From the sequence record PV464739.1: a DNA stretch of 64,000 nucleotides. One strand, written 5' to 3'. The position numbers and the translations under genes are program-made. Source of the DNA: Escherichia phage RCIP0363. The stretch's first letter is position 1. Each line of letters begins with the position of its first letter. Positions 58,105 through 58,405 of the stretch are shown here, piece by piece. Under the pieces are notes generated by a model that saw nothing but the letters and a program-made list of their open reading frames with translations, was not told the origin of the DNA and ran no database searches.

Positions 58105-58405
58105 ATAGAATTTAAGCGTATAATGACGTAAGATTTGGACCTATCCGTAGTTCACTCCACACACTTCTATGGTGCGCCGCGACTGGGTTCAGTGGTACAC
58201 TCATACGGATGATACGGATGATACGCGTCGCCGCTATACTTTATACAACTTTGAAAAAAACAATTAACTCCATTTTAAATTAATTTAAATTAATTTTTTT
58301 CTACATCCTCATACTTATACTAAACTTATATTTATACGTATTATCCGTAAGATATAAGTAAAAACAAAGACTTGCGGCAATACGGATGATACGTCATGAT
58401 ACGCT
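58105..58405. promoter_or_regulatory. Repeat-rich regulatory module, copy 2
   Basis: gcgtataatgacgta (TATAAT at 58119-58124), GATACGGAT tandem repeats at 58203-58225 and 58379-58403, tatccgta words, AT-rich core 58245-58320 with aaattaatttaaatta; parallels the module at 6600-6900. Confidence 0.5.

Follow-up and report, generated by a model that had tools for sequence, protein, structure and literature searches.

A repeat-flanked, AT-rich module beside the small-terminase gene as the probable packaging and terminus site of a Wifcevirus genome, with a conserved second copy ahead of the head genes

We analyzed a 64,000-nucleotide stretch of DNA from Escherichia phage RCIP0363 (sequence record PV464739.1; hereafter the window), in which an earlier note, made from the letters alone, had singled out a non-coding element present at 6600-6900 (copy 1) and 58105-58405 (copy 2). 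Our analysis indicates that copy 2 is probably where packaging of this Wifcevirus genome is initiated and its terminus formed: in three genera the core of the element proximal to terS, the small-terminase gene, contains the genome end or the start of packaging; terS is adjacent; and repeats flank the cut. DNA searches with both regions identified the source of the window as a member of the genus Wifcevirus (ECML-117/WFH-like E. coli myoviruses) and matched 28 E. coli and Shigella Wifcevirus records, mostly at 89-99% identity (ECML-117, FEC19, WFH, WFC, Mansfield, and Bas98-101 of BASEL). The numbering of the window is that of records beginning with the large-terminase gene.

Genome ends and the small-terminase gene

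The position of the genome end was obtained from relatives with resolved ends. WFH carries an exact 3701-bp direct terminal repeat, the first base of which aligns to 58272 in the context …AATTAACTCC/ATTTTAAATTAATTT… (here and below, a slash marks the cut). WFC, Ro157lw, and SP13 have the repeat at both ends and start at the same nucleotide as WFH, and all four genomes begin ATTTT(A/G)AA. The Mansfield record, which was opened at a PhageTerm boundary, terminates at the base aligning to 58271. These end-resolved records come from at least three laboratories; Korf et al. gave repeats of ~3.7 kb for WFC and WFH, and Liao et al. a repeat of 3533 bp for Ro157lw by PhageTerm. In the window, the left end junction reads ctcc/ATTTTAAA and lies inside the AT-rich core of copy 2, five bases ahead of a 20-bp palindrome. 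The right end of the repeat aligns to 62120 (…GGGCATGGGTCTTT/TGGTGCG), within 260 bp of non-coding DNA that hardly varies in either Wifcevirus clade. Since the window and the end-resolved relatives have identical sequence at the boundaries, the ends were transferred by homology. The relatives carry direct terminal repeats of 3.5-3.8 kb and not cohesive, lambda-type ends.

The heptamer TGGTGCG occurs 14 times on the two strands of the window, so finding it in copy 2 is not in itself significant. It is notable for position only, standing exactly at the right repeat end in Wifcevirus and likewise abutting the other repeat end of Serratia phage MyoSmar. Within 61640-62300, near-invariance across clades extends from 62036 on, around the repeat end at 62120/62121, and direct repeats near this end comprise AATCATTCGCTTTC (twice), CGCGTAAGTC(C/G)TTGTTTTATA (twice), and AAATTTGCAGTACACTA (twice). 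Repeats were also seen at the other side of the terminal repeat. The 11-mer ATTTGCACTAT has eight exact copies, all on the plus strand at 58609-59814 and confined to the first ~1.5 kb of the repeat, plus a one-mismatch copy at 60077; two lie directly before or over the terS start codon, one just past its stop, and the others antisense to minus-strand genes. Both Wifcevirus clades retain six to seven copies on the same strand, and no equivalent was seen in MyoSmar or Pbunavirus.

The gene that begins 227 bp past copy 2 encodes a 157-residue product that matched PDB entry 7UXE_A, 'Small terminase', in a phmmer search (E=9e-33, residues 3-147). According to a review, 7UXE is the decameric TerS of the Pseudomonas phage E217 (Pbunavirus), whose terS lies ~58 kb from terL. 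The product has no match in Pfam, and its assigned PHROG is of unknown function. On this homology, gene 58632-59105 is shown to be the small terminase, although it is labeled 'hypothetical protein' in all Wifcevirus records examined. Orthologs occupy the same position in MyoSmar (35% identity, E=2e-30), MTx, a Pbunavirus, and Xanthomonas phage Carpasina. Within Wifcevirus TerS is 97% identical, and the boxes described below are the same; between genera, the first ~60 aligned residues, which we take to be the DNA-binding part, diverge more than the remainder, a minor point in support. In several records small open reading frames (ORFs) are annotated over the module (e.g., Bas99_0090-0093, SP13_001, and F13_0020); they look doubtful because of the repeat structure.

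The coincidence of element, end, and terS extends to phages with little nucleotide similarity to Wifcevirus. MyoSmar (Myosmarvirus) has only ~17% nucleotide identity to ECML-117. PhageTerm assigns it a 3559-bp repeat, and the inner edge of this repeat (3559/3560) lies inside an AT-core/repeat element adjoining the terS ortholog. Its repeat word, ACTTTTCGTTTT, differs from that of Wifcevirus, and a further word, CTATGGTGCGCCGC(A/G)(G/A)CTGGG, forms a 26-nt inverted pair around the core. In MTx, analyzed independently, the boundary is 14 alignment columns off that of MyoSmar and within the same element. For Pbunavirus JG024, whose genome is circularly permuted, a published study located the proposed pac site at 59,376 +/-5, where 36 of 161 long reads begin, and describes this one preferred read start only. 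We find that 59,376 is the left edge of the AT core in the terS-proximal element, 600 bp upstream of terS.

Myosmarvirus and Pbunavirus also have a second copy. In MyoSmar it lies upstream of the head protease gene and contains the same Serratia-specific word (blastn: 52 bp, 85%, E=7e-12). In Pbunavirus APTC-PA18, the terS-proximal and protease-proximal elements share GGTAATTTGG and AAGCCTACT.CCGCG (79 bp, 78%, E=6e-14). In MyoSmar and Pbunavirus, both copies are colinear with their downstream genes. The alignments show a two-copy layout conserved in three genera (Wifcevirus, Myosmarvirus, and Pbunavirus).

Together these observations suggest how the site might work. Boxes on both sides of the cut would dock terminase. 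Their likeliest binder is the ring-shaped small subunit TerS, in which neighboring DNA-binding domains could read successive boxes, an arrangement that suits the 9-bp spacing; cleavage by the large subunit would follow in the core, where the strands part readily, and the terS (right-hand) side of the cut would be the first DNA to enter the head. The JG024 study reports a dip in coverage to the left of the pac start, which we take to mean that packaging runs rightwards through terS and matches a Wifcevirus repeat that begins at 58272. Copy 1 would be a paralog that binds the same protein and is not a major cleavage site. It may pair with copy 2, link head-gene expression to terminase, or serve as a replication origin; each is a possible role.

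Anatomy and conservation of the two modules

The module is a quasi-palindromic, non-coding unit of ~300 bp with exactly two copies. When the two intergenic regions were compared with the whole window by blastn, copy 1 aligned to copy 2 over 104 bp at 77% identity (E=2e-15; 6669-6770 versus 58201-58303) and, because each module is itself a rough palindrome, again in reverse orientation (207 bp, 68%, E=2e-9). The same searches found no third copy anywhere in the window, nor any in the 64-68 kb segment, represented by ECML-117. Short words tell the same two loci apart from the remainder of the window. GCGTATAATGACGTA occurs exactly at 6618 and 58116 only, with an inverted copy containing one mismatch at 58390-58404; the tandem GATACGGATGATACGGATGATA, with up to three mismatches allowed, is restricted to 6670, 6787, 6796, 6869, and 58202, and shuffles gave none. 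The word GCC(G/T)... ATACTTTATA, written GCCGC(T/G)ATACTTTATA in the plan of copy 2, is found at 6698 and 58230, and AAATTAATTTAAA(A)TTA at 6725 and 58277. Exact GATACGGAT nonamers are limited to 6635-6890 and 58211-58219, and matches to at least seven of its nine positions reach 10-12 per 400 bp at the two module loci only (maximum of 7 in 30 mononucleotide shuffles). The other late operons (terL, portal, and tail genes) contained no such module in box scans of the window.

These results bear out most of what the earlier note had claimed. Every shared word it quoted was recovered in place, and its view that a complex non-coding element is duplicated beyond chance agrees with the blastn E value of 2e-15 and with box clusters confined to both loci. 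Each copy does precede a morphogenesis or packaging gene, copy 1 the prohead protease and copy 2 the small terminase. In the pairwise alignment, the similarity is carried by G/C-containing words plus the AT core and not by low-complexity AT sequence alone; since the G/C-containing words share in it, the match is not a low-complexity artefact. One further word, ATTGCCGC, seemed recurrent in the modules and was dropped, being common throughout coding DNA.

Both modules follow one plan, in which arrays of (G/T)ATACG boxes surround an AT-rich core, with the core hexamer spaced every 9 bp and in one case 10 bp (Table 1). No other 80-bp duplex window of the 64 kb is as unstable as the two cores, at dG -75.9 (copy 1) and -81.7 kcal/mol (copy 2), compared with a mean of -110.6 and a standard deviation of 7.0 for 80-bp windows across it; the least stable window of copy 1 is 90% A+T. 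As single-stranded DNA, copy 1 forms a long hairpin (dG -30.8, z = -6.5). The palindrome of copy 2 is weaker (z = -2.8), though its core carries a perfect 20-bp palindrome. Copy 1 has more boxes than copy 2, and they match better; it lacks the cut-site context TAACTCC/ATTTT, the word GCCGCGACTGGG and, with it, the CTGGG that this word contains in copy 2. A 35-bp stretch with CTATGGTGCGCCGCGACTGGG is present in copy 2 and missing from copy 1, where the alignment has a gap. gcgtataatgacgta, which resembles a -10 promoter element, seems better read as two reverse boxes (reverse complement TACGtcatTATACGc); its counterpart in clade 2 is GCGTATCATG, so TATAAT is not conserved.

Searches for other known signals were negative. 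Rfam scans of both regions gave nothing at the gathering threshold, with only sub-threshold chance hits to microRNA (miRNA) precursors, which arise because of the long inverted repeat. The GCCGCGACTGGG and AGCTGCGGC words and the right repeat end folded no better than shuffles when examined for single-strand ssi-type hairpins. Neither module contains a DnaA box (TTATCCACA, up to one mismatch), and the module boxes contain no Dam sites.

Table 1 Features of the two modules, the predicted ends, and the gene map (gene map based on the annotated relative Bas99 and on family searches; positions are those of the window)
Feature	Position	Strand	Remarks
Copy 1 outer-left triple box	6618..6643	-	GCGTATAATGACGTATCATCCGTATC
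Copy 1 inner-left triple box	6670..6694	+	cTTACGgatGATACGgatGATATGc
Copy 1 word, then AT-rich core	6698..6788	.	Word GCCGCGATACTTTATA; invariant in both clades
Copy 1 inner-right box array	6789..6817	-	3-4 boxes; inverted to inner-left; 25-nt arms, 92% complementary
Copy 1 further boxes	6846..6892	.	GATACGGATaaaaATACGcc on +; two boxes on - at 6873-6890
Sigma-70-like promoter ahead of prohead protease	6949..6977	+	TTGCCT-17-TATAAT; consensus match only
Copy 2 outer inverted repeat (20 nt)	58111-58130 / 58390-58409		90% complementary
Copy 2 outer-left boxes	58116..58151	-	GCGTATAATGACGTA = two reverse (T/G)ATACG-type boxes, then single box at 58143-58151
Copy 2 word CTATGGTGCGCCGCGACTGGG	58167..58187	+	Conserved in Serratia phage MyoSmar
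Copy 2 inner-left triple box	58202..58226	+	cATACGgatGATACGgatGATACGc; clade-2 Wifcevirus homology resumes here
Copy 2 word GCCGCTATACTTTATA	58230..58245	+	Common to copy 1 as GCCGCGATACTTTATA, 6698-6713
Copy 2 AT-rich core	58247..58332	.	~85 bp; includes perfect 20-bp palindrome AAATTAATTTAAATTAATTT, 58277-58296
Predicted first base of virion DNA (left end of direct terminal repeat)	58272	+	…AATTAACTCC/ATTTTAAATT…; homology to five end-resolved relatives
Predicted direct terminal repeat	58272..62120	+	By homology; 3849 bp in the window; 3.5-3.8 kb in relatives
Copy 2 inner-right boxes	58334..58351	-	ATACGTATTATCCGTAAG; inverted versus inner-left array
Copy 2 outer-right triple box	58379..58404	+	aATACGgatGATACGtcatGATACGc; right arm of outer inverted repeat; invariant in both clades
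Inverted partner of word CTATGGTGCGCCGCGACTGGG	58416-58424		AGCTGCGGC
Two tandem sigma-70-like promoters ahead of terS	58551..58597	+	TTGAAC-17-TATAAT, TTGAAT-17-TATAAT; consensus match only
terS, small terminase subunit	58632..59105	+	157 aa; ATG at 58632
TerL	1-1461	+	Bas99 annotation/family searches
Portal	2247-4655	+	Bas99 annotation/family searches
Prohead (head) protease gene	7001-8419		First gene 3' of copy 1
Head genes, then tail genes	After portal to ~28.5 kb	+	
Replication block	29.5 to 46.2 kb	-	
RepB-like (RepB-type) primase	46322-47404	+	PF16793, E=1.6e-36
VapE-like/DUF5906 helicase	48714-50384	+	PF05272, E=1.6e-28
~30 small genes	Up to 57789	+	Followed by non-coding region with copy 2

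Wifcevirus falls into two clades, and the two copies behave differently between them. To the left of 58201, clade-2 sequences are barely alignable yet retain TATCCGTA, GCCGCG..CTGG, TCTTACGGATGATACGGAT, and TACGTCATGATACG; from the cut rightwards, on the terminal-repeat side, copy 2 is highly conserved between clades. Copy 1 is almost invariant in both clades from 6712 to the protease start codon. The copies show no sign of concerted evolution across the clades, the core of copy 1 being identical in both and that of copy 2 differing. Judged from these alignments, copy 1 is under strong constraint, and it stays upstream of the protease-scaffold-capsid operon in three genera.

A mosaic boundary coincides exactly with the inner-left boxes: roughly half of the Wifcevirus genomes cease to align leftward of 58201, against ~89-93% identity on the right side. 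So sharp a boundary suggests that recombination may have occurred at or near the packaging site.

Packaging, replication, or regulation

As at pac and cos sites, a genome end lies inside copy 2 (here placed by homology) and the element adjoins the small-terminase gene. Several points nevertheless weigh against a packaging and terminus role. A second near-complete copy, at 6600-6900, is unexpected, a unique packaging site per genome being the rule, and no ends have been reported at copy 1. The ends of the present genome at 58272 and 62120 are predictions, assigned by homology to relatives. A review describes E217 TerS as without appreciable DNA binding in vitro, and the 11-mer ATTTGCACTAT could be an alternative candidate for the site recognized by terminase or by a regulator. 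Short repeats that flank the most melt-prone DNA are equally typical of iteron-type origins. In Pbunavirus, MyoSmar/MTx (Myosmarvirus), and Carpasina (Carpasinavirus), moreover, the terS-proximal element directly follows the VapE-like gene; in Carpasina, terS lies 2.7 kb further on, and no similarity was detected between the element and the protease-upstream region of the same phage, so we do not extend the two-copy rule to this fourth genus.

The position after the VapE-like gene is among the grounds for reading both modules as replication origins, in which a phage initiator, such as the VapE-like helicase in concert with the RepB-like primase, would recognize the boxes as iterons, the AT core would serve for unwinding, and the coupling of repeat duplication or end formation to initiation would account for the end in copy 2. 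SaPI origins are similarly placed downstream of rep. Each module has 10-12 boxes, in both orientations, around one of the two least stable duplex stretches, as expected of iterons beside AT-rich DNA; the phage encodes both a RepB-type primase and a VapE-like helicase; two origins per genome need no special pleading; and lineage-specific repeat words are what an initiator and its iterons would produce. An origin alone, however, does not predict that in three genera the element should contain the mapped cut or pac start, nor that terS should be adjacent, and copy 2 of Wifcevirus sits 7.4 kb from the VapE-like gene. DnaA boxes, common at origins and not obligatory, are lacking from the modules, as are ssi-type single-strand hairpins from the conserved flanking words. 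GC skew tracks transcription direction without an inflection at copy 1 and is uninformative on origins. On balance, we judge origin function as the sole explanation of both modules to be rather unlikely. A combination of the two roles, which we think unlikely, would be a dual-purpose ori/pac unit present in two copies: one box-bound nucleoprotein complex would open the AT core for terminase and for DNA synthesis alike; synthesis begun at copy 2 would produce another 3.8 kb repeat, giving both concatemer neighbors a full one; and copy 1 would act either as another origin or as a pairing partner through which packaging is licensed.

The modules might instead regulate late genes, a phage activator or repressor on the boxes controlling the terS and protease-scaffold-capsid promoters, with the end in copy 2 as a separate feature superimposed on them. 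In three genera both copies do stand ahead of genes required late, in the same orientation, and near-consensus sigma-70-like promoters follow each of them; copy 2 also contains GCCGCGACTGGG, and the phage-specific promoters described for Pbunavirus 14-1 have a CTGGG core. We consider this decidedly unlikely, as the terL, portal, and tail operons lack the module, copy 1 lacks the CTGGG word, the box arrays stop short of the -35 hexamers downstream, by 57 bp in copy 1 and 145 bp in copy 2, and so do not overlap the promoters, and the conserved cut site in the core would be left unexplained. That the modules are a non-autonomous, MITE-like mobile element with terminal inverted repeats, or a functionless recent duplication due to chance, is scarcely credible, even with the 20-nt inverted repeat that bounds copy 2 and the long imperfect palindrome of copy 1. 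There are just two copies: the window has no further one, and neither has the 64-68 kb segment, as judged from ECML-117; the two hold fixed syntenic positions in three genera with almost no shared DNA identity; no target-site duplication is visible in the sequence; and copy 1 is nearly invariant across both Wifcevirus clades. The fixed positions, together with the statistics given above, exclude a mobile element or chance for practical purposes.

A packaging-initiation and terminus site thus remains our preferred account of copy 2. The earlier note had proposed a shared regulatory or replication function for the pair; for copy 2 that proposal is not the best supported, the physical end evidence pointing to packaging and the terminus, and it may yet hold, especially for copy 1.

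Genome setting, implications, and known systems

Some features of the surroundings deserve record. The products of 46322-47404 and 48714-50384 are both labeled 'DNA primase' in relatives, and the pairing of a RepB-type primase with a VapE-like helicase is typical of plasmid and satellite replicons. On its left, copy 2 is adjoined by a GT-rich non-coding tract (57896-58065, 72% G+T). GT- or CA-rich tracts likewise lie beside the terS-proximal element in MyoSmar/MTx and Pbunavirus; the Carpasina tract consists of tandem CACCAACCCAG / AACAACCCCAG units (L016, ~6590-6680), and its opposite strand is rich in G runs.

Terminal repeats in this group and the putative pac position of Pbunavirus are already published. 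In the available records and papers we did not find the box/AT-core architecture, its coincidence with the ends, the Wifcevirus terS assignment, or the conserved second copy. The Wifcevirus records examined leave an annotation gap: terS is labeled 'hypothetical', and the element either carries no annotation or lies under doubtful small ORFs. Wifcevirus phages and their Pbunavirus relatives are in use, or have been suggested, for phage therapy and for detection, and synthetic versions of their genomes are being built; a cis-acting packaging site together with terS defines where a genome may be opened, engineered, or truncated. The paper on synthetic vB_Eco4M-7 is silent on termini. Standard packaging models do not foresee a second copy preserved ahead of the head genes; together with the fixed repeat ends, it offers a concrete way into the question of how long terminal repeats arise. 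Liao et al., citing Casjens and Gilcrease, describe the mechanism that makes long direct terminal repeats as unknown. A dual ori/pac unit, if true, would supply a concrete, testable one.

The site can be set beside several well-studied systems. In the pac sites of P1 and SPP1 (pacL-pacC-pacR), binding repeats flank a central cleavage region near the terminase genes; the small subunit is thought to bind the flanks and the large subunit to cut between them, and packaging is headful, with permuted genomes and one site per genome. A review supports this layout for SPP1 pac. Wifcevirus resembles these sites in having recognition-type repeats on both sides of the cut, near a terminase gene. It differs in its fixed ends with a 3.5-3.8 kb direct repeat, in its second near-complete copy and, from P1, in boxes without the Dam sites that the P1 hexamers have. 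At lambda cos, the order is cosQ-cosN-cosB and then Nu1, and sequences beyond the cut may serve termination. The succession of a cut site, repeated (predicted) small-terminase sites, and the small-terminase gene is common to both; the Wifcevirus ends are not cohesive, however, and its boxes lie symmetrically on both sides. A putative IHF-type site was spotted by eye.

The T7/T3 concatemer junction belongs to non-permuted genomes with a terminal repeat and combines pacB/pacC, short repeat arrays, and a promoter or secondary origin beside the repeat. Wifcevirus likewise has a non-permuted genome, a direct terminal repeat, and short repeat arrays at the boundary, and in both the formation of ends may be tied to the opening or synthesis of strands nearby; the secondary origin near the T7 junction is also a likeness to the origin reading. 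Unlike in T7/T3, the Wifcevirus repeat is ~20 times longer, there is no phage RNA polymerase, and the sequences are unrelated. For T4, a review describes a 'twin-ring pac synapsis', in which pac-like sequences in genes 16 and 19 are bound by TerS double rings. Two related sites per genome and proposed joint binding by the small terminase are the points of likeness; the T4 sites, however, are short, intragenic, and a few kb apart, with packaging that is not site-specific, whereas the Wifcevirus modules are 300 bp, non-coding, and ~16 kb apart.

In iteron and AT-rich origins (SaPI ori, lambda ori, SPP1 oriL/oriR, and P4 ori/crr), repeats flank a melt-prone stretch; SPP1 and P4 each have two related origin copies at distant sites, and the repeat words are lineage-specific. 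Wifcevirus shares all of this, with short repeats around a melt-prone AT core, two distant copies, and lineage-specific words, but differs in that one of its copies includes the packaging cut and abuts terS.

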